NCBI RefSeq assembly: GCF_001591565.1
Contig: NZ_BCVD01000046.1
Coordinates: forward strand, 1,375 to 25,374
Origin: Priestia flexa NBRC 15715
GTDB lineage: Bacteria > Bacillota > Bacilli > Bacillales > Bacillaceae_H
Direction: 5' to 3'
Length of the DNA stretch: 24,000 bases
The notes under the pieces are model-generated. The model made no database searches. It worked only from the letters and a program-made list of their open reading frames with translations, and was not told the origin of the DNA. The position numbers and the translations under genes were made by a program. Shown one piece after another: positions 2,576 to 24,000 of the stretch. Positions within the stretch are counted from its first letter, which is position 1, and every line of letters starts with the position of its first letter.

Positions 2576-3916
2576 TTATTTACTATATGATTTAACTTGT
2601 TTTGAGTGAACTACTTTACCTTTTAGATTATATAAGCTAAGAAGATAACCGCCCATAGCCCCAGCGATTGCTGGTACTAACCAACCAAATCCTGTGTTAT
2701 ACAATGGCAAAGTCTTTACAAGTTCCCCCCAAGCACCTAAGTTTAACCCTGACTGAAGACAAGCGTCCGTTACGCTTACAATTCCAACGAATAAAATAGA
2801 TAAAGCATATACACCTTGCTTTCCTTTGATTAAAGAATTCGTTAATGATAGAACAATTAGCATAATAGCAACAGGGTAAATAGCTGTTAAAACTGGAACT
2901 GAAATTTTTAGAATCATGGTTAATCCTAAGTTTGCAACAAGTAAACTAAATACGGCAATTGTACTAACCCAAACCTTATATGATACTTTCGGTACTAATT
3001 GCTCAAAATACTGACTGCATGAGGTTAATAATCCAACAGAAGTTGTTAAACACGCTAGCGTAAATACAACTCCTAATAGAACAGCTCCGAACGGTCCAAA
3101 AAGCGTAAATACAATGTTCGTTAACGTTATTGCTCCATTTGCTGCATTGGCATGACTAACAGATCCTAAATATGCCAGCATAAGATAAATAATAGCTAGC
3201 AACGTTCCTGCAATTACTCCTGCACGAATGGATGATGACATAATACTTTTCGCACTAGTCATTCCTTTTTGCTTCAAAGCCATTGCAATGACAATTCCAA
3301 AGTTTAGCGCAGCGATTGTATCCATGGTCGCATAACCATCGGTAAATCCAGTAGCGAATGCTTTTGTGACATAATTACCTGCAGGTTGACCAGCCGGCTC
3401 AAAAGGATAAGAAAGGGCACGAATAAAAATAAGTGAAATAAGAACTAATAAAACTGGCGTTAATACTTTTCCAAAGCGGTCAACAAGCTTTGAAGGCTTT
3501 AAAGCTAACCAGTAAGCAAGTGCAAAATAACAAAACGTATATCCAAACAGCGCGGCTTTTACATTTACTCCTTCAGGTAAAAAAGGCTGTACGCCCATTT
3601 CAAATGCTAAGCTTCCTGCTCGTGGGATTCCTAAAAAAGGTCCAATTGCTAAGTAAATCATGACCGTAAATACAACGGCGAAAACTGGGTGGACTCGGTT
3701 TGCTAATGAATGAAGACCATTTGATTTTGCTACAGCAATGACACCCAGGATTGGTAGCCCCACAGCCGATAAAATGAAGCCTGTAACAGCTGGCCACAAT
3801 TCACTTCCAGCAGACTGTCCTAAAAATGGAGGGAAAATTAAGTTTCCTGCTCCAAAAAATAATGAGAATAGCATTAAACTAATAAACAGTGTATCTTTTC
3901 TTGATAAAGCATTCAT
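2576..3916 (-). CDS. brnQ: Branched-chain amino acid transport system II carrier (LIVCS family)
   Basis: MNALSRKDTLFISLMLFSLFFGAGNLIFPPFLGQ... is a polytopic protein of about 446 aa with the typical BrnQ N-terminus. The start was moved to ATG 3916, which is preceded by TAGGAGGAAC. The track ORF extends upstream to 3973. Confidence 0.9.
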   Translation of the reverse strand: MNALSRKDTLFISLMLFSLFFGAGNLIFPPFLGQSAGSELWPAVTGFILSAVGLPILGVIAVAKSNGLHSLANRVHPVFAVVFTVMIYLAIGPFLGIPRAGSLAFEMGVQPFLPEGVNVKAALFGYTFCYFALAYWLALKPSKLVDRFGKVLTPVLLVLISLIFIRALSYPFEPAGQPAGNYVTKAFATGFTDGYATMDTIAALNFGIVIAMALKQKGMTSAKSIMSSSIRAGVIAGTLLAIIYLMLAYLGSVSHANAANGAITLTNIVFTLFGPFGAVLLGVVFTLACLTTSVGLLTSCSQYFEQLVPKVSYKVWVSTIAVFSLLVANLGLTMILKISVPVLTAIYPVAIMLIVLSLTNSLIKGKQGVYALSILFVGIVSVTDACLQSGLNLGAWGELVKTLPLYNTGFGWLVPAIAGAMGGYLLSLYNLKGKVVHSKQVKSYSK

Positions 3917-4003
3917 GTGAGTTCCTCCTAGATTGTTTGTATTTCTGATTTTTCTGTCTAATGTCAATATCACTTTCCACTCGAATCACTCCTTTTTATA
4001 CAC

Positions 4004-4258
4004 AAAAAAATCCCGTCCCTAAAAAGGGACGAGATATAATTCTCGCGTTACCACCCTCGTTCTGCTAAAAACAGCAGCACTCGCCAACGTACGTGTTCAT
4101 ACGTGTTCCTTCTAACGGTGGACGTCCGAATATACTTACTATAAGGCTTCAGCATATTTTCTCAGAGATGATTTTCAGCTAGGAACTGTACGCTAACTTT
4201 CAGCAAACGTTAGCTCTCTGGGGAACAGTTTTCATAACCTACTCGTTCTCTTCAACGA
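4004..4258 (-). promoter_or_regulatory. T-box leader (tRNA-sensing riboswitch) with terminator, controlling brnQ. Probable specifier is AUC (Ile)
   Basis: The minus strand shows the GA/K-turn and AGTA box (TTGAAGAGAACGAGTAGG) and the distal CCAGAGAG...GCTGAAAG. It also shows a specifier-loop-like GAAA-AUC-A-UCUC (AUC = plus 4170-4172) and the T-box sequence GAGGGTGGTAACGCG (plus 4044-4056). The terminator is GTCCCTTTTTAGGGACGGGATTTTTTT (plus 4004-4034). Confidence 0.85.
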
Positions 4259-4437
4259 ATTTATAAGGTGTTTTAATTGAATAAAAATATTCTAACAAAA
4301 CTTTTAAGATTTGTATACAAAAATTAAAATATTTTATCAATTATATTTTTTCCCATTAATAGTCAGTCTATAAAATGAAACTTCTAGCTAATTCGTTCGT
4401 ATATACTACTATATTACTTAATAGGAGGCTCTTATAC

Positions 4438-9033: not shown

Positions 9034-9882
9034 TTATCCCAAATCTCCTGACTTATACGTTCCAATCGGTTCCCCATATTTTAATTTTGTTCCACGTTCC
9101 AATGTATTCGTTAGCTTTACCTTATCTCTTTCGAACAAAAGGACTACCGTTGAGCCAAACTCAAATAACCCCACTTCTTCTCCTTTTTCATAAAAGGTAT
9201 CGTTAACAGATGTCGTATAATATTTTCCATTCTTTACATTAGTCGTATGATTTCCGTATGGTACCTGGACACTTCCAACAATAAATGCGCCTACTTTAAC
9301 AAGCGCTATTGTTCCAGCTTGCGTATCCACATATGTGATCAATCGCTCGTTTTTTGTGAATAGCCCAGGAACATGCTCGACTCCGATACGATTAACCGGG
9401 AACAAACGTCCTGGTAAATATGTTGCTTTTTTGACCGCTCCTGAAAGCGGCATATGAATGCGGTGATAATCGCTAGGGCTTAAATAAATGGTTAAAAAAG
9501 TTCCACCGTCAAACCTTTCAGCTTCTTCTTTCGTACACCCAATCAGCTGCTCTACTCGATAATCAATCCCTTTTGCTTGAATAAGAGTTCCTTCCTTAAT
9601 ATCGCCATATTCTGCTACTTTTCCATCTACTGGACTGGAAAGAGTATATGGATCGGCTACGACTTCTCGGGCTTCTGCTTTTAGCTTTCTCGTGAAAAAT
9701 GCAGTGAAATTAGGATAAGAGTCTAAAGATTGTTCCATTTCATCTAGATTAATTTTATAAATTTTGCTATATGGCTTGATGATATATCTGCTAATGCTTG
9801 AGCGTCCTAACACCCCTACTCCACGTGAAATCGCATTTTGTGGTAATATTTCAATGATTTGCTTTGCTATTTGATTAATCAT
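9034..9882 (-). CDS. psd: Phosphatidylserine decarboxylase proenzyme
   Basis: 282 aa with SPVDG, YLSPSDYHRIHMP and the FGST self-cleavage motif (FEFGSTVVL). Confidence 0.93.
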   Translation of the reverse strand: MINQIAKQIIEILPQNAISRGVGVLGRSSISRYIIKPYSKIYKINLDEMEQSLDSYPNFTAFFTRKLKAEAREVVADPYTLSSPVDGKVAEYGDIKEGTLIQAKGIDYRVEQLIGCTKEEAERFDGGTFLTIYLSPSDYHRIHMPLSGAVKKATYLPGRLFPVNRIGVEHVPGLFTKNERLITYVDTQAGTIALVKVGAFIVGSVQVPYGNHTTNVKNGKYYTTSVNDTFYEKGEEVGLFEFGSTVVLLFERDKVKLTNTLERGTKLKYGEPIGTYKSGDLG

Positions 9883-9899
9883 TTCCTATAACATTCCTT

Positions 9900-10469
9900 T
9901 CATATGGCAGACCGTGTATAAAGTTTTCGAACTACAAGTATGATAAGTACGCAGCCTATGAAAGAAACCAATACCTTCCCAGTGCTTGTCCAATTCATGA
10001 CTTGGTAAACAGAATAGCCTTCAATAAGAATTGAAGGAAGCTTTCCAATTGAGCTTGCTAAAATAAAAATCCCTAAAGAAGTCTTTCCAATAGCCGCAAT
10101 AAATGTAACAAGTCCTGAAGGGACAAAAGGTAATAGTCTCAAAGAAAGAATAAGTAGAAATGCTTCTTTTCCCCGTGCATGTAAAAGCTGTTGAATTTTA
10201 GGAGAAGACAACCGCTTATGAGCAGTTAGCTTTCGAAAACCTTTTCGGTAGAGCCAAAACGAAACAACTGCTCCAACTGATTCTCCAATAAACGAAATAA
10301 CCATTCCTTCCCAAAAACCAAAAACAACCAAATTAGCTGCTGTTAAAAATACGCTTGGTAAAACACCAGCAATGCTAATGAGCACATTCAACAAAATACT
10401 TAGTATAAATGCAATACTATCATAGCTTTCGAATAGCTGAACCGTAATTTCTTGGATATCCGCATTCAT
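9900..10469 (-). CDS. TVP38/TMEM64 (DedA-superfamily) membrane protein
   Basis: 189 aa and polytopic. GESVGAVVSFWLYRKGFRK and LRLLPFVPSGLVTFIAAIGKTS are typical of the TVP38/SNARE-associated family. It sits immediately upstream of psd, like ybfM in the B. subtilis pssA-ybfM-psd operon. Confidence 0.75.
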   Translation of the reverse strand: MNADIQEITVQLFESYDSIAFILSILLNVLISIAGVLPSVFLTAANLVVFGFWEGMVISFIGESVGAVVSFWLYRKGFRKLTAHKRLSSPKIQQLLHARGKEAFLLILSLRLLPFVPSGLVTFIAAIGKTSLGIFILASSIGKLPSILIEGYSVYQVMNWTSTGKVLVSFIGCVLIILVVRKLYTRSAI

Positions 10470-14681: not shown

Positions 14682-15155
14682 TCTTAATAAGTCGCCGTAC
14701 TCTTGCTGTCGCAGCGCTTCATAAATTAAAATAGCTGCCGTGTTTGATAAGTTTAAAGAACGAACGTTTTTCGTCATTGGTAAACGCAAGCATCTATCCA
14801 TATTCGCTTCAATGATTTCATCAGGTAAGCCACTTGTTTCGCGACCAAACACAAAGAAGTGATCATCTTCTACATTGCTATAGTCAAAGGATGAATGCGG
14901 CTTCTTTCCGAATTTAGTGATGAAGTAAAATGCGGCTTCTGGATACTTTTCAAAAATTTCTTCTAACGAATCATGATAGATAACCTCAACATAATCCCAA
15001 TAATCTAAGCCGGCGCGCTTTAACATTTTATCATCCGTCGAGAAGCCTAATGGACGAACTAAGTGTAAAGTTGTGTTCGTTGCTGCACAAGTTCTCGCAA
15101 TATTACCAGTGTTAGCTGGAATTTCTGGTTGATATAAAACAACATGTAGTCCCAA
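14664..15155 (-). CDS. trmL: tRNA (cytidine/uridine-34 2'-O)-methyltransferase TrmL (SpoU/TrmH family; CspR)
   Basis: GLHVVLYQPEIPANTGNIARTCAATNTTLHLVRPLGF...FVFGRETSGLP...LNLSNTAAILIYEA. The start was moved to TTG 15155 behind AGAGGTG. Confidence 0.9.
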   Translation of the reverse strand: MGLHVVLYQPEIPANTGNIARTCAATNTTLHLVRPLGFSTDDKMLKRAGLDYWDYVEVIYHDSLEEIFEKYPEAAFYFITKFGKKPHSSFDYSNVEDDHFFVFGRETSGLPDEIIEANMDRCLRLPMTKNVRSLNLSNTAAILIYEALRQQEYGDLLRENPLD

Positions 15156-18222: not shown

Positions 18223-18296
18223 TGGAGCGGGTGATGGGAATCGAACCCACGACATCAGCTTGGAAGGCTGAGGTTTTACCATTAAACTACACCCGC
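18223..18296 (-). tRNA. tRNA-Gly (anticodon UCC), CCA encoded
   Basis: Minus strand reads GCGGGTGTAGTTTAATGGTAAAACCTCAGCCTTCCAAGCTGATGTCGTGGGTTCGATTCCCATCACCCGCTCCA. The acceptor stem is GCGGGTG/CACCCGC, the anticodon stem TCAGC/GCTGA with loop CTTCCAA, and the T-loop TTCGATT. Confidence 0.95.
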
Positions 18297-20377: not shown

Positions 20378-20574
20378 AACTATGTATCCCCTTTCAAACT
20401 AACTTATCACCTCAGCAGTGAACTAAGAAGCTTACTGCGTGAGTCTTTCATCTTTAGTACTTATTGTACACCTCTTCACACTCGACTTCTAGAGAGATCA
20501 ATTACATTTTGTTAACTAATTTACAATTTTTATTTAATTCAAACTTAATCAGTTGCTTTGAAAAGACTAAACAC

Positions 20575-20604
20575 AAAAAAGACCTCAACATCTCTGTTGA
20601 AGTC
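20575..20604 (-). terminator. Rho-independent terminator directly downstream of the tRNA-Leu 3' fragment
   Basis: Minus strand reads GACTTCAACA-GAGA-TGTTGAGGTC followed by TTTTTT. The stem is 10 bp with one G-U pair. Confidence 0.8.
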
Positions 20605-20634
20605 TTAACATTACGCTCTTTTATGTAAAACTAA

Positions 20635-20687
20635 TACCAGTGGTCGGGGTCGAACCGACACTCCCGAAGGAACACGATTTTGAGTCC
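20635..20687 (-). pseudogene. 3' half of a tRNA-Leu(CAA) gene (anticodon loop to acceptor end); candidate att site of the adjacent island
   Basis: Minus strand reads GACTCAAAATCGTGTTCCTTCGGGAGTGTCGGTTCGACCCCGACCACTGGTA. It has anticodon loop CUCAAAA, a long class-II variable arm with a UUCG loop, T arm GTCGG-TTCGACC-CCGAC, and the acceptor 3' strand. No D arm or 5' acceptor strand is present further upstream, and anticodon-stem pairing breaks down at about 20688. Confidence 0.75.
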
Positions 20688-20774
20688 CCAAAACAACTCG
20701 AATCTTATTTAGATCTTTACCTTCAACGTTTGTCGAACTTTGTTGTTTTTTCGGTTAACACGATTATCTTTATT

Positions 20775-20803
20775 ATTATGCCTTGTTCCTTCAGAAAAGT
20801 CAA
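20775..20803 (-). promoter_or_regulatory. Outward-facing sigma-A-like promoter at the island edge
   Basis: On the minus strand: TTGACT (20798-20803), 17 nt, CATAAT (20775-20780). It points toward the tRNA fragment and the terminator at 20575-20604. Confidence 0.4.
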
Positions 20804-20835
20804 CCCTATTTATGATTTATTTTGAGTGCTTTTGA

Positions 20836-21228
20836 TTAAATCTTATTGAATTTGGCTTGCCCCAATTTTTTATACTCTCTTATGAGCTCCTTTTCAAATC
20901 TTCTTGCATCTTCTTCTCGATTAAACTCTCCTACAAACTTATATTCAATTTTACCATCCTTCATTAGTTGCTTATGTTCCGTGTTTCTTCTATTAGTATA
21001 TCTTCTGCACCGATACCAAACTCCACTTCCTATATAAACAACTTCACCATTTAATAAATGAAGATAAACAGTATATTTGTTTACTTTTCTAAGCTCACTT
21101 GAATTAAGCTTATATTTTTTAATAAGTTGGATTACTTTTTGAAATGTAATACCATAAATACTTGCAATGTCTTGATTGGTCATCTTATTTGATAAATGTT
21201 CAATAATTTCTTCTTTTGTTGGTAACAT
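20836..21228 (-). CDS. Small HTH + GIY-YIG-like nuclease-domain protein (130 aa)
   Basis: The N-terminus NQDIASIYGITFQKVIQLIKKY is HTH-like. The C-terminus reads YTVYLHLLNGEVVYIGSGVWYRCRRYTNRRNTEHKQL...ARRFEKELIREYKKLGQAKFN. It fits the GIY-(x9-11)-YIG pattern followed by Arg, His, Glu and Asn. RBS AGGAGG lies 10 nt before ATG 21228. Confidence 0.55.
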   Translation of the reverse strand: MLPTKEEIIEHLSNKMTNQDIASIYGITFQKVIQLIKKYKLNSSELRKVNKYTVYLHLLNGEVVYIGSGVWYRCRRYTNRRNTEHKQLMKDGKIEYKFVGEFNREEDARRFEKELIREYKKLGQAKFNKI

Positions 21229-21315
21229 AAAAAATCAACCTCCTAGAATTGTTATATCTAGAAGATTGACTTTGTAAATCGAATTTTATTATAAAATAAC
21301 CATTCCACAACAAAT

Positions 21316-23400
21316 TTAAGTTGGAGAATCAGCGGTTTTCTCTTGTTTCTCCTCTTCATCTGTTGGAATCTTTATATACTCTTTCATCTTTTCTAAAGAA
21401 AGTAATCCAAACTTATCTTTGGCTTTTGATATTTTCTCTTCAAGGTATTTTAAATATTCTGGTTTGATATATGGAGTTAATACGAATTTTATATCAATAT
21501 TATCCCCCATCTTCATCCAGCCAGGAAGGGAATTCTCATAAGCAAAGACCCTCTGAGTATAAATGATTAAGGCCATTTTTTGCATACAATATATAATAGT
21601 ATCTTCATTAAACACAAAATCTACATCCAAATCCGAAAAGCAATACCCCTCTAGCTTTGCCCTTGATAAATAAATATCTTCACCATTATTTTCCTTTAAT
21701 TCTGCAAAAGTATCCTTTAAGATATTACCATGAGAATGATTAGTTATTAAATATTTAACTAAGAATCCTGTTACAGGATACTTGGATAACTCTATACCTT
21801 TTAATATAGACTGCAAAATGAGGTATATGATTGCTTGCTCTATATTAGAGCTTTCACTGCTTTCTATCTTAATATGAACTCCGGTTGTCCATGAAACCTC
21901 AACTTCTGTTTTACCTGCTTCAACTTCCGATTTACCCTTTTCTCCTTTGTTCATAAGCCTCTTCATAGAGTATGCAAGATGACTAAGTAAGTTTATATCT
22001 CCTTGTTCTACTGCATTTAATAGTAAATGCTTATAAATTCTTAACCCACCAATACTTGAAACATCTTGAGCAATCTCTCGGCTACAGAACTGCTCTAAAA
22101 AGTCTAAGACTGTTCGAAATAGTACGGGTTCATCTGAATCCAAGTACATAATTAATTCATGTAAAATAGTATGAAATTCTTTTTTCAGATCTTCAAACTG
22201 GTCTGATGGCTCGAAAGTAAAGAGTATTTCTATACATCGTGATATTTCGGAATGACGATTATGATCGTGTAGTGATTTTATTAATGCTACATGCTGAATT
22301 AGCAACGATTTATGTAAACTTTTATAAGCTTCTTCAGAGTTTTGTGCCTTAGAAGCTTGATATAGTAACTGAGAAGGTATGGTAATTTGTGAATTCTCCC
22401 CAAGATAATCCATCATCTCCTGTGGAATACCTTCAATAAAAAGAGAAGATAACTGCTCCAACGACTTAGAAGACTCATTATAAACTTCCATCATATTTTT
22501 CTCCACACAAACAATTAATGTTTGATAATAGGTTTCAATAGAAGCATTTAAATATTCATATAAACCTTTTCTGAATTTAAAATCTTTGTTCAAAATCATT
22601 ACTTGAATAATAACAGTATTAATACTAGACATTGAGTGTCTAAGTAGTGTCCTAATGTCGATACTGTTAAGCATTTTACGAAGAGTATTAACCCCATAAA
22701 ATAAACTCATACAAGTAATGATAATCCATATAGGAAGTCTTACTAAGTTTTGAGGATCTTCATAGAAATTTAACATATTGTCTTTATTAAATGGGATAGC
22801 GAAAATCTTCCCATAAATTGTATTGAAAAGGATAAGAGCTAAACCTACTATAAATCCCATATTACCAGATGCTAAGTTACTACTAATAGCAACAGATTTT
22901 CTCTCTCTATAAGCAAAAAAATAAATAGTAAGAGAAATTGACCAAAAGATTGCTAGAACGTTAGATGCTACATCAATTACTCCAATTGTATATGAAGGAT
23001 ACTTCTTTATTGCTTTTACAACATTTAAATTGATTTGCATAAACCATTCGTTAATATGTTGTAAAACATACACAATAGTTTTTGTATTAGGAATAGTTAA
23101 ATATAAAAAATAAAATAGCCCTATAAAAATTATAGGACTAATCATTGTAGCGTAAAAATTATATTTACCTGCAACATAGATTAGTTCTTTTCTCCATATT
23201 GATATTGTGGATATAAATTTCAAAAGGGAGATGTTAAAATTCTTAAGCTTTTGATTATTTTTTCGAAATACATGCTTGGTGTAAAAAATAAAACTTTGAT
23301 ATGGATATATAAAATTAATTATTTTTTTCGTTAGAGCTATTATTTTCTTTCTTATTAAAAACAAAATAATCAATATAAGTATCTTACTAAAAAATGACAA
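21316..23400 (-). CDS. 694-aa membrane protein of unknown family: N-terminal ~5 TM segments plus a ~450-aa C-terminal helical soluble domain
   Basis: Long uninterrupted ORF with a TTG start at 23400, 6 nt after GGGGGAA. Hydrophobic segments are KILILIILFLI, ATMISPIIFIGLFYFLYLTIP, VASNVLAIFWSISLTIYFFAY, GNMGFIVGLALILFNTIYGKIFAI and LPIWIIITCMSLFYGV. I recognise no catalytic or nucleotide-binding motif in the remainder. Confidence 0.75.
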   Translation of the reverse strand: MSFFSKILILIILFLIRKKIIALTKKIINFIYPYQSFIFYTKHVFRKNNQKLKNFNISLLKFISTISIWRKELIYVAGKYNFYATMISPIIFIGLFYFLYLTIPNTKTIVYVLQHINEWFMQINLNVVKAIKKYPSYTIGVIDVASNVLAIFWSISLTIYFFAYRERKSVAISSNLASGNMGFIVGLALILFNTIYGKIFAIPFNKDNMLNFYEDPQNLVRLPIWIIITCMSLFYGVNTLRKMLNSIDIRTLLRHSMSSINTVIIQVMILNKDFKFRKGLYEYLNASIETYYQTLIVCVEKNMMEVYNESSKSLEQLSSLFIEGIPQEMMDYLGENSQITIPSQLLYQASKAQNSEEAYKSLHKSLLIQHVALIKSLHDHNRHSEISRCIEILFTFEPSDQFEDLKKEFHTILHELIMYLDSDEPVLFRTVLDFLEQFCSREIAQDVSSIGGLRIYKHLLLNAVEQGDINLLSHLAYSMKRLMNKGEKGKSEVEAGKTEVEVSWTTGVHIKIESSESSNIEQAIIYLILQSILKGIELSKYPVTGFLVKYLITNHSHGNILKDTFAELKENNGEDIYLSRAKLEGYCFSDLDVDFVFNEDTIIYCMQKMALIIYTQRVFAYENSLPGWMKMGDNIDIKFVLTPYIKPEYLKYLEEKISKAKDKFGLLSLEKMKEYIKIPTDEEEKQEKTADSPT

Positions 23401-23412
23401 TTAAATTCCCCC

Positions 23413-23444
23413 AAAAAAATAAGGCGCAATTTAATTAGCGCCTT
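23413..23444 (-). terminator. Intrinsic terminator/attenuator hairpin between the Panacea gene and the 694-aa gene
   Basis: Minus strand reads AAGGCGC-TAATTAAATT-GCGCCTT followed by ATTTTTTT. The stop codon of the upstream gene lies in the loop. The hairpin ends about 12 nt before the next gene's start codon, and its U-tract abuts that gene's GGGGGAA RBS. Confidence 0.6.
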
Positions 23445-23877
23445 GCAATAGTCCACCATAATATTCTTGCATATCTTCTATTTGGATAATTTCATTCATT
23501 CCTTTACTCCAAGCATTTAACCATGGTGATTCTTTATGTGTAAGTGTTTCTAAATACTTGCCATCATACTCTCCATATAGTTTCCATACACCTTCTAATA
23601 CTTCTAAATCTTCCGGATTAATTTGAAAATTAATTTTGTCCACGGGAGGAATTTCTCGAGAACCGTAATCACGATATTCACGATACAACTCACGAGACAC
23701 TGGTCCATGTAACCATGCTTCTAATTCACTATTAAATACCGGACGACCATGTATAGCCATACTCCACGCCTGAGCATAATATACAAGCTTTTGTAATTTC
23801 AAATGTGTAATAGAGAAATTCCGACCTGCCAAACTCTTGTTTCTAAAGTATAGAGCCACTTGACGAACATCCATCAT
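23431..23877 (-). CDS. Panacea/DUF4065 (SocA/GepA-like) antitoxin-domain protein, 148 aa
   Basis: ITHLKLQKLVYYAQAWSMAIHGRPVFNSELEAWLHGPVSRELYREYRDYG...LTHKESPWLNAW matches the DUF4065 signature as I remember it (T.lKLqKLlYyaqgw.l...g.plF...feAW.yGPV...vY..y...g ... tH.e.PW). RBS AAAGGAGGG lies 8 nt before ATG 23877. Confidence 0.85.
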   Translation of the reverse strand: MMDVRQVALYFRNKSLAGRNFSITHLKLQKLVYYAQAWSMAIHGRPVFNSELEAWLHGPVSRELYREYRDYGSREIPPVDKINFQINPEDLEVLEGVWKLYGEYDGKYLETLTHKESPWLNAWSKGMNEIIQIEDMQEYYGGLLQGAN

Positions 23878-24000
23878 ACATACATCCCTCCTTTAGTTTT
23901 GAAGGAAACAATGTTTTAATATTGTACTTTTTCGACAAAAAACAAGAAAAATCCTGCATAATAATCAAAAATTAAAAAATTAAAACAGTCAACATTTCTT

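Follow-up and report, generated by a model that had tools for sequence, protein, structure and literature searches.

Panacea antitoxins pair with dozens of unrelated toxins, and the adaptor mechanism of SocA is established in Caulobacter; to our knowledge, every validated Panacea partner is small. Nine of the 25 PanAT candidates tried by Kurata et al. behaved as toxin-antitoxin pairs. Taken together with the earlier PhRel2 pair from B. subtilis, these include three membrane-depolarising toxins; five complexes have been shown, all pairs examined biochemically form stable type II-like complexes, and the GPV motif of PanA is required for neutralisation (Kurata et al., 2022; PMC8832971). Stand-alone Panacea domains neutralise directly, a toxin of 281 aa is termed "relatively large" in this context, and a sensory role for Panacea is favoured by Ernits et al. 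(2023; PMC10440598). Dataset S1 of the PNAS study lists, as predicted PanT cluster T18 (pT21), a further pairing with the gene order A|T, a reciprocity of mostly 5|5, the HHpred result "NoHit" and the mark "notest"; the T18 entry there is a table row that says nothing about size, topology or context (Kurata et al., 2022; PMC8832971). The gene pair analysed here belongs to this cluster, and the pairing that an earlier note on this DNA had called undescribed has been on record in supplementary data since 2022.

The window, i.e., the whole 24,000-nucleotide stretch of Priestia flexa NBRC 15715 DNA that was analysed, holds the following features at the locus under study:

23431 to 23877, minus strand: panA, encoding a 148-aa stand-alone Panacea (DUF4065) protein, putative antitoxin/sensor (Pfam, PHROGs, NCBI annotation)
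5' of the panA ATG, minus strand: panA ribosome-binding site AAGGAGG (read from the sequence)
23408 to 23413, minus strand: ribosome-binding site GGGGGA of the 694-aa gene, within the 30-nt panA-panT spacer and 7 nt from the TTG at 23400
21316 to 23400, minus strand: panT-like gene, 694 aa, T18 family, putative toxin/effector (open reading frame; same product at NCBI)
20836 to 21228, minus strand: gene of a 130-aa HTH and GIY-YIG-like protein, island backbone gene (weak Pfam matches; invariant motif residues)
20688 to 20835, minus strand: conserved arm of the island, flanked by the 130-aa gene and the tRNA fragment (near-identical across most of the islands compared)
20635 to 20687, minus strand: 3' half of a tRNA-Leu(CAA) gene, attR-type core at the island end (read from the sequence)
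20579 to 20606, minus strand: intrinsic terminator of the displaced tRNA-Leu gene on the host side of the junction (12-bp stem, then a T run)

The open reading frame list of the window reproduced exactly the coordinates of the three tightly packed genes given in the earlier note, with the start codons ATG, TTG and ATG for the 148-, 694- and 130-aa products, respectively, and with gaps of 30 nt between the first two genes and 87 nt between the last two. The AT-rich setting described there was recovered as well, with a GC content of 0.26-0.33 over positions 20501-24000 versus 0.35-0.40 in most other DNA of the window. No terminator-like site was found between panA and the 694-aa gene in a scan of the window sequence, and a search with all three proteins (148, 694 and 130 aa) against PADLOC-DB v2.0.0 returned 0 families at E <= 1.

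The assignment of the first gene to the Panacea (DUF4065) domain holds: its product matches Pfam SocA_Panacea (PF13274) with an E-value of 1.3e-21 and 78 bits (cutoff 25.7) and phrog_1281 with an E-value of 3.3e-46, it is named Panacea domain-containing protein at NCBI (WP_082802723.1), and it possesses the GPV motif. The NCBIfam model SocA_antitoxin aligns with residues 3-77 (E 1.3e-17), but its score of 64 bits lies below the cutoff (190), and this PanA is therefore not a SocA equivalog. Since Panacea is the SocA domain, this partial match and the adaptor mechanism known from Caulobacter lend some credit to a type VI, SocAB-like system in which PanA would serve as a proteolytic adaptor and deliver its membrane partner to a general protease of the cell, of the ClpXP or FtsH kind, toxicity thus being held in check through degradation and not through binding alone. 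We regard such a system as quite unlikely, given the score below the cutoff, the lack of SocB similarity in the 694-aa partner, and the stable type II complexes found for the biochemically examined PanAT pairs (PMC8832971).

For the second gene, NCBI predicts the identical 694-aa product (WP_061785575.1). Kyte-Doolittle analysis places about five transmembrane (TM) segments at residues 6-24, 85-103, 139-162, 177-202 and 219-240, so that a TM region of residues ~6-240 would be followed by a cytoplasmic all-alpha domain of about 450 aa; in the AlphaFold model (pLDDT 86.2, pTM 0.85), the non-TM remainder is all-helical. This is the architecture that had been proposed from the sequence at the outset. 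There was no match in Pfam, PADLOC, PHROGs or NCBIfam, and the AlphaFold model had no structural relative in the PDB or BFVD. Likewise, tblastn gave no match in 50,697 GenBank phage records, no catalytic or pore motif was recognisable, and recurrent matches to NaK-channel profiles had E-values >= 1 and were gone when a single-sequence query was used. TM3, which ends in F-x-Y-R-E-[QR]-K, shows the top conservation in the close family (0.87) and ranks within the top three in the wide family, and F162 is invariant across 102 sequences; judged by this conservation, the membrane part of the protein probably matters for its function. The reading of the protein as a putative sensor plus membrane effector is plausible.

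The wider family of the 694-aa protein comprises ~158 clusters at 50% identity, and its hosts are Firmicutes in every case with a named member. Two T18 entries of Dataset S1, WP_120193130.1 (P0099, Sinobaca) and WP_110937920.1 (P0167, Salipaludibacillus), are homologous to the window protein, and the former matches the window family with a profile E-value of 2e-21 and a BLASTP E-value of 7e-25 over 551 residues. The spacers that we observed in Sinobaca (52 nt) and Domibacillus (60 nt) agree with those in Dataset S1 (PMC8832971). Of the features by which Kurata et al. (2022) define PanAT pairs, the window pair has the Panacea/DUF4065 partner, a spacing of 30 nt (<= 100 nt) and a listed cluster (T18), and it is not embedded in any conserved operon of more than three genes.

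The proposal that a DUF4065 gene directly precedes homologues of the 694-aa protein is borne out by 24 of the 25 assessable family loci, where a panA gene lies immediately upstream and in the same direction, the linked homologues being only 17-26% identical to the window protein. These 24 comprise six close-family loci, ten distant genome loci (PanA confirmed by Pfam in nine, E 3e-19 to 5e-26, and by BLASTP in L025, 4e-23), two with a partial PanA at the edge of the locus (one Pfam-confirmed), two B. cereus-group megaplasmids with an annotated SocA-domain antitoxin upstream, and four IMG/VR contigs. The linkage thereby extends over Priestia, Metabacillus, Peribacillus, Lysinibacillus, Jeotgalibacillus, Sinobaca, Domibacillus, Virgibacillus, Halobacillus, Brevibacillus, the B. 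cereus group and viral contigs. On the prophage contig L043/L045, where the big gene directly follows the endolysin gene and the contig ends inside the big gene, no PanA was found upstream. The spacers between the two genes range from -4 to 117 nt; they measure -4 to 60 nt in 16 of 18 loci and 117 nt in L029, and an apparent spacer of 427 nt in L008 exists because of a late start call. Identity matrices of PanA and PanT from 18 loci are correlated (r = 0.90; 0 of 2000 Mantel permutations were as high), a sequence-level correlation that shows co-inheritance, not physical contact. All 18 PanAs keep the GPV motif, and the big gene is split or frameshifted in some copies (P0009/P0010; P0169/P0170).

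The pair resides in phage-satellite-like islands, in prophage accessory slots, on megaplasmids and in the bare chromosome, and the genes that flank it vary in nearly every locus. In four satellite-like loci (L004, L005, L006 and L008) it is located after capsid-type genes and before the att end; Pfam detects capsid and small terminase in all four and a portal only in L004 and L006, with L004 carrying portal, a protease-major-head fusion and small terminase upstream of the pair. No integrase was seen in the 4-10 kb of upstream DNA examined at these loci, and the window itself holds none of these satellite-type genes. The P. flexa island (L001) is without capsid genes and is full of IS elements. 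On the IMG/VR contigs, the pair lies between lysis genes and an integrase or repressor gene, and its slots in prophages are beside an endolysin, integrase or CI repressor gene; elsewhere it adjoins putAbiC, PLD, TIR or SMEK genes, or is found among ordinary housekeeping genes. The PanA-PanT pair hence moves as a unit between unrelated mobile contexts. The defence-like or mobile surroundings anticipated in the earlier note are often seen, be they Abi_C, putAbiC, TIR, SMEK and restriction-modification-like genes, lysis and integrase slots of prophages, or satellite cargo slots.

Positions between lysis genes and integrase or at the side of the CI repressor are typical of prophage accessory genes, and together with the satellite cargo slots they invite the view that the 694-aa protein is a membrane-anchored exclusion or sensor protein rather than a toxin. 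It might, for instance, obstruct the entry of DNA or attach to a phage protein; PanA would be its obligate cofactor or regulator and not its antidote, and expression would be that of cargo on the lysogeny side. The protein would be very large for a toxin, and its modelled, well-folded and helical-repeat-like domain would suit partner binding; the sensory role favoured for Panacea by Ernits et al. (PMC10440598) and the yield of nine toxin-antitoxin pairs from 25 predicted PanAT pairs (PMC8832971) point the same way. We nevertheless consider this view unlikely: near-obligate linkage to, and co-diversification with, an antitoxin-type domain is the pattern of an addiction pair, the conservation of TM3-TM5 exceeds what a mere anchor would need, and split or frameshifted copies are common among toxin genes.

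The third gene of the window takes us to the end of the island, of which the window covers only the last 3.2 kb. Positions 20635-20687 run from the anticodon loop (CAA) of a type-II tRNA through its long variable arm and its T arm, which has a perfect stem of 5 bp and the loop TTCGACC, to the 3' strand of the acceptor. Of the tRNA-Leu att-like boundary claimed earlier, the island and att context stands and an intact tRNA-Leu gene does not, as merely the 3' half is present; ARAGORN called tRNA-Gly(UCC) at 18223-18296 as the only tRNA and not the tRNA-Leu fragment, and Rfam gave no match in 20400-20900. An identical tRNA-Leu 3' half ends the island in L001 and L002, homology between islands of different hosts stops exactly at the 3' end of this fragment, and a hairpin similar to the window terminator follows the tRNA fragment in Metabacillus (L005). 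The adjoining arm (20688-20835) is nearly identical in P. flexa, P. megaterium, Bacillus sp. S35 and L007, with partial agreement in Metabacillus; it contains a sigma-70-like promoter match (TTGACT-17-CATAAT, 20803 to 20775, 10/12).

Contiguous with this arm is the 130-aa gene, whose product has sub-threshold Pfam matches to HTH_28 (E 0.0018) and GIY-YIG (E 0.034, 14.9 bits versus a cutoff of 22.6). The canonical GIY-YIG positions Y55, Y65-x-G67, R73, H85, E112 and N128 are invariant among six homologues, T4 endonuclease II was the sole PDB match of its profile (E 0.86), and the L008 homologue resembles a homing-endonuclease GIY-YIG protein with a C-terminal DNA-binding tail. These conserved residues, and the co-directional, closely spaced genes of the window, L002, L004 and L006, would fit the three-gene cassette that had been postulated, the HTH/GIY-YIG protein then acting alongside PanA and the membrane protein as a nuclease effector or as a regulator. 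Such a system is highly improbable, and the cassette could not be upheld: the 130-aa gene is confined to close-family islands and is absent from all distant family loci that have downstream DNA, in L007 its distance to the pair is 7.8 kb, with LXG-toxin and methylase/helicase cargo in between, it is separated from the pair by a reverse PIN gene in L005, and in L001 an IS21 element splits it while the pair is intact. Moreover, its product is better conserved between islands than the 694-aa protein. The 130-aa gene is a backbone gene of the att-proximal end of the island and stands outside the PanA-PanT module.

The most likely reading of the pair is that of a PanAT-type toxin-antitoxin or abortive-infection candidate with an unusually large putative membrane effector. 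On balance, we lean towards the fuller statement that the first two genes are a self-contained, mobile PanA-PanT module of cluster T18 and a putative toxin-antitoxin or abortive-infection pair; an island integrated at a tRNA-Leu(CAA) site would bear them as cargo at its att-proximal end. Against the PanAT reading stand the "notest" mark of T18 in Dataset S1 and the nine successes among 25 candidates (PMC8832971), a size far above that of the validated PanTs, the lack of a pore or catalytic motif, of a structural relative and of PADLOC or GenBank phage matches, and the big gene of L043/L045 with its missing upstream PanA on a contig that ends inside the gene. As for mechanism, PanA may bind the big cytoplasmic helical domain and thereby hold the membrane protein inactive, direct neutralisation being known for other stand-alone Panacea antitoxins. 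Upon a trigger such as phage infection or loss of the element, PanA would be lost, titrated or re-shaped, and the freed, conserved TM3-TM5 bundle could then disturb the membrane and stop growth, with abortive infection and exclusion of competitors, or else maintenance of the element, as the expected result. The HTH/GIY-YIG-like protein would have no role in these events. It is conceivable, albeit doubtful, that T18 constitutes a new class of membrane effectors, in which a PanA sensor restrains the helical domain, phage infection switches TM3-TM5 to a depolarising or lytic state, and the module serves as anti-phage cargo of the temperate phages and phage satellites of Bacillales.

If the T18 reading is true, the 694-aa protein would far exceed all other PanA-controlled toxins in size, with a fold that has no solved or viral relative, and its family would widen the range of Panacea partners to polytopic membrane proteins of 600-700 residues. 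New here are the topology, an estimate of how large the family is, a linkage to PanA that stays near-obligate down to ~20% identity, the occurrence in cargo slots of satellite-like islands and prophages, and the finding that the third gene is no part of the module; as a result, a two-gene construct can be tested directly. These findings bear on whether the role of Panacea is that of an antidote or that of a sensor, and the pair is a good experimental candidate.

Among described systems, the locus shares with the T18 PanAT pairs a stand-alone Panacea gene in first position, a partner within 100 nt and conservation across Bacillales, whereas the Priestia subfamily is only ~20% identical to the T18 members listed and has no entry in the part of Dataset S1 that was examined. 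The arrangement in which the pair follows portal, protease-capsid and small-terminase genes resembles the accessory regions of PICIs and of capsid-forming PICIs, a described family of phage satellites (10.1101/2025.02.11.637232), so that these loci are putative satellites. With SocAB, the type VI system of Caulobacter, it has the antitoxin domain in common; it differs in that PanA remains under the NCBIfam cutoff with only its N-terminal 75 residues matched, and in that its partner is not SocB-like and has no NCBIfam match. Like the toxFtsL(D9):PanA pair of Gelidibacter mesophilus, it combines a stand-alone Panacea protein with a putative TM toxin that has a soluble domain (Ernits et al., 2023; PMC10440598), but that toxin is a slow-acting, FtsL-like protein of 281 aa with a GAF domain, whereas the 694-aa protein is 2.5 times larger and has no FtsL or GAF similarity. 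Predicted TM helices also link it to the validated membrane PanTs of E. coli (T3), Bartonella (T12) and Helicobacter sp., which depolarise the membrane and are neutralised by PanA (PMC8832971); no sequence similarity to these PanTs was found, and unlike the small TM peptides of the T3/T12 type, the putative effector described here would present about five TM helices and a folded domain of ~450 aa within its 694 residues.

In the P. flexa window, a stand-alone Panacea protein is encoded together with a polytopic membrane protein in a mobile two-gene unit. The three open reading frames that an earlier note had read from the sequence alone were recovered by us with exactly the same coordinates and the same gaps of 30 nt between genes 1 and 2, and 87 nt between genes 2 and 3:

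23431-23877, minus strand: gene 1, panA, open reading frame of 148 aa
21316-23400, minus strand: gene 2, panT-like, open reading frame of 694 aa with a TTG start
20836-21228, minus strand: gene 3, open reading frame of 130 aa

This stretch is AT-rich, with a GC content of 0.26-0.33 compared with 0.35-0.40 across most other DNA of the window, and the gene flanking the locus encodes the class III fructose-bisphosphatase of its host, Priestia flexa. Both large genes possess good ribosome-binding sites (AAGGAGG before panA; GGGGGA 7 nt 5' of the TTG of gene 2), and no terminator-like site was found between genes 1 and 2. NCBI annotates the products of genes 1, 2 and 3 as a Panacea domain-containing protein (WP_082802723.1) and two hypothetical proteins (WP_061785575.1 and WP_061785574.1, respectively). 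Matches of gene 1 to Pfam PF13274 (E 1.3e-21) and to phrog_1281 (E 3e-46) identify it as a stand-alone Panacea domain, as the earlier note had proposed; its product carries the GPV motif and, at 64 bits, stays below the 190-bit cutoff of the NCBIfam SocA equivalog.

Word-indexed searches with the single 694-aa protein, with an alignment of its close relatives and with a deep family alignment returned only 10 close relatives, from Priestia, Bacillus, Metabacillus and Peribacillus, as the word pre-filter missed the distant family. With an exhaustive HMMER search, the family grew to 158 clusters (50% identity threshold), most of them full-length and 560-750 aa long; the members with a name are all "hypothetical proteins" of Firmicutes (B. 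cereus group, Brevibacillus, Paenibacillus, Halobacillus, Heliobacterium and Pelosinus). To find distant loci, the best family motif, K534..E537..Y541..G545..K549, was turned by hand into a degenerate pattern that matches once per known locus and was run against a single genome of each species; 19 of the 28 genome matches and all six viral matches (6/6) were true family members.

The linkage of this family to PanA is strict. A Panacea gene lies directly upstream of the gene 2 homologue in every context of the close family, and each distant member with upstream DNA is directly preceded by a co-directional open reading frame of about 150 aa. All ten of those tested (10/10) are Pfam SocA_Panacea proteins: nine are full-length (E 3e-19 to 5e-26), and the tenth, truncated at the edge of its locus, matches with E 1.3e-5. 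BLASTP placed PanA at 3857-4303 of the Virgibacillus locus L025 (E 4e-23) and a partial PanA upstream in locus L022, and on two B. cereus-group megaplasmids the gene 2 homologue is preceded by a gene annotated as a SocA-domain antitoxin. Together with four of the five assessable IMG/VR contigs, PanA precedes its partner in 24 of 25 assessable loci, so that the prediction of a DUF4065 gene directly upstream of homologues of the 694-aa protein was borne out. The sole exception is a prophage (L043/L045; IMGVR_UViG_3300014526_000002) in which a VanY-type endolysin gene and a 116-aa gene precede a gene 2 homologue that is cut by the contig end; PanA may lie downstream of this truncated gene. Across 18 loci, the identity matrices of PanA and its partner correlate with r = 0.90, a value that none of 2000 Mantel permutations reached (0/2000). 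This correlation, which does not prove contact, indicates that the two proteins are inherited as a unit. PanA is the better conserved partner (32-53% versus 17-26% identity to the window copy). The Peribacillus homologue in locus L008 is annotated with 535 aa and a start 427 nt after PanA (9573-10001); this start is probably mis-called, since the frame is open from 9593 and spans 671 codons from stop to stop. Split family genes were seen on a JGI contig of 4378 bp (P0009/P0010; 408+263 aa) and in Bacillus sanguinis (P0169/P0170; 339+240 aa), and are likely to represent frameshifts or inactivated copies.

The third gene behaves differently, and the three-gene cassette envisaged in the earlier note cannot be upheld. 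The 130-aa gene is confined to close-family islands, where it lies 7.8 kb from the pair in an uncultured relative (L007), is found behind a reverse PIN gene in Metabacillus (L005), and, in a second P. flexa genome (L001, 12167-14753; GCA_038050335.1), is interrupted around codons 17-19 by an insertion element of the IS21 family (IstA/IstB). Despite this disruption, PanA and the 694-aa gene of L001 are identical to the window copies. We consequently assign the 130-aa gene, judged by its sequence context, to the island backbone and place it outside the two-gene module. Its Pfam matches to HTH and GIY-YIG domains are sub-threshold only; the canonical GIY-YIG residues are invariant across its homologues, and that of Peribacillus resembles homing-endonuclease GIY-YIG proteins with a DNA-binding tail. 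Just upstream of PanA, L001 also carries a second IstB-like gene and an IS3-type transposase gene.

Beyond gene 3, the island ends at a tRNA remnant:

20688-20835, minus strand: island arm with a promoter match, TTGACT-17-CATAAT, from 20803 to 20775
20635-20687, minus strand: 3' half of a tRNA-Leu(CAA), by sequence reading
20579-20606, minus strand: terminator after the tRNA half

The islands of P. flexa, P. megaterium, Bacillus sp. S35 and the uncultured relative all end with the conserved 130-aa gene, 150-nt arm and tRNA half; the Metabacillus island retains the 130-aa gene (67% identity), the tRNA half and, from the arm, just the promoter hexamers. As similarity between the islands ends exactly at the 3' end of the tRNA, the island end looks like an attR junction. 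The att-like character of this boundary in the earlier note is thereby retained, but its tRNA-Leu is a fragment: only the 3' half is present, ARAGORN detected no tRNA-Leu anywhere in the window, and Rfam gave no match at the boundary. Four of the five islands share the promoter match and the ~85 nt that follow it almost unchanged; the fifth, that of Metabacillus, keeps the hexamers alone. The arm continues directly into the tRNA half and the terminator behind it. This conserved stretch might serve as an attP arm bearing recombinase sites or, alternatively, encode a small tRNA-like RNA; folding of the promoter-to-terminator stretch reaches z = -2.0 only. In L001, an intact tRNA-Leu(CAA) and a tyrosine integrase gene are located 9.5 kb upstream of PanA. 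We considered this tRNA (76-161) as the attL partner of the fragment (14904-14957) and rejected it because the acceptor strands cannot pair (CACTGGT in the fragment, GCCGAAG in the 5' strand of the L001 tRNA); the variable and T arms differ as well. The true left end (attL) was not found, and the element in P. flexa is likely to be composite or tandem. Overall, we interpret the pair as putative cargo of a satellite-like island integrated at tRNA-Leu.

In P. megaterium (L004), Bacillus sp. S35 (L006), Metabacillus idriensis (L005) and Peribacillus (L008), the pair follows protease-major-head and small-terminase genes and precedes the att end; a portal gene was also detected in L004 and L006. 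The island segments that encode the prohead protease-major capsid fusion and the small terminase are as follows:

L004, 4480-9194
L006, 4564-9056
L005, 1041-3653
L008, 5301-8928

Large terminase, tail and lysis genes were not found in the 4-10 kb seen of these four islands, which by their gene content look like capsid-forming phage satellites of Bacillaceae with the pair in a cargo slot. The same slot of L007 (12518-19729) holds, between the pair and the 130-aa gene, a WXG100/LXG-type toxin (Colicin-DNase/WHH) with SUKH immunity as well as an N6_N4 methyltransferase and a ResIII helicase. On viral contigs, the pair is positioned between endolysin and integrase genes or beside a CI-type repressor gene; at other loci it adjoins putAbiC, PLD, TIR or SMEK genes, or resides among housekeeping genes. 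The B. cereus-group megaplasmids have it next to genes for a TIR-domain protein and a DUF1643 protein (L037, 3205-5086) and near a SMEK-domain protein gene (L038, 1-326), neighbors that suggest a defence-island setting.

Searches of Pfam, PADLOC, PHROGs and NCBIfam gave no match for the gene 2 product, and no Pfam family matched any of 66 diverse relatives. Hydropathy delineates about five transmembrane (TM) segments (6-24, 85-103, 139-162, 177-202 and 219-240), a pattern shared by distant relatives, and the positive-inside rule predicts an outside N-terminus and a cytoplasmic location of residues ~245-694. The AlphaFold model built from a 102-sequence alignment is all-helical and confident (pLDDT 86.2; pTM 0.85); a poor run with only 9 sequences (pLDDT 62.8) was excluded from the fold search. 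Foldseek returned nothing convincing from the PDB (best E 3.9e-3, TM 0.27, designed repeat proteins) or BFVD (best E 0.07), and a profile search against PDB sequences gave no significant match. Pore domains of the NaK potassium channel recur in that family profile search at E 1-5 and would correspond to residues ~147-224 (window ~22729-22962; TM3-TM5). We rejected this channel reading since the matches are non-significant, are not reproduced with the single sequence, and the model is devoid of a re-entrant pore helix. Conservation within the close family peaks in TM3 and its cytoplasmic F-x-Y-R-E-[QR]-K end. F162 is invariant in 102 sequences; unlike TM3, the first two TM segments and the outer loops are variable. 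Among the internal evidence, this conservation speaks most strongly for a membrane activity. Further conserved patches in the cytoplasmic domain (E289/Q293; K534/E537/Y541/G545/K549; N598/Y604/C605/K608/Q616) form no recognizable catalytic motif and suggest a binding or regulatory surface.

Ten PanAT pairs have been validated in all, nine of them by Kurata et al. (2022); complex formation was shown for five pairs and membrane depolarization for three PanTs (PMC8832971), and stand-alone Panacea domains neutralize directly (PMC10440598). Based on these precedents, PanA would bind the gene 2 product and hold it inactive, and a membrane-directed activity would be released when PanA is lost or re-shaped. 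We lean, by a small margin, toward the gene 2 product being a PanA-controlled toxic effector and are somewhat more reserved about membrane depolarization as its specific activity; a demonstrable anti-phage role of the pair appears rather unlikely. The size and unassigned fold of the gene 2 product and its strict linkage to PanA make the locus a good candidate for experiments.

Contrary to what had been surmised from the sequence alone, the pair is not undescribed. Ten members of a putative toxin cluster, T18 (pT21), are listed in Dataset S1 of Kurata et al. (2022; PMC8832971); they include Sinobaca qinghaiensis WP_120193130.1, Domibacillus robiginosus WP_050181289.1 and Salipaludibacillus neizhouensis WP_110937920.1, the latter with the HHpred entry "NoHit"; the T18 entries are all in antitoxin-toxin order, mostly with a reciprocity of 5|5, and all "notest". 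Our homologues P0099 and P0167 are WP_120193130.1 and WP_110937920.1, respectively; P0099 matches the close-family profile with E 2e-21 and the window protein with E 7e-25 over 551 residues (BLASTP). The PanA-partner spacers that we measured, 52 nt in Sinobaca and 60 nt in Domibacillus, agree exactly with the Dataset S1 values. With two T18 entries being homologous and the spacers being equal, the pair corresponds to an already catalogued, predicted PanAT cluster. The Priestia protein itself was not found among the accessible Dataset S1 rows (PMC8832971), nor were T18 accessions in the accessible part of the NetFlax supplements. The membrane PanTs discussed in the text of Kurata et al. (2022; PMC8832971) are small TM peptides only, and in a follow-up paper a PanT of 281 aa counts as "relatively large" and Panacea is put forward as a possible sensor (PMC10440598). 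The observation in the earlier note stands, and its interpretation is supported in part, with a two-gene rather than a three-gene unit from an already published predicted cluster. Judged from these homologies, we classify the locus as a divergent new member of this predicted PanAT cluster and not as a categorically new system.
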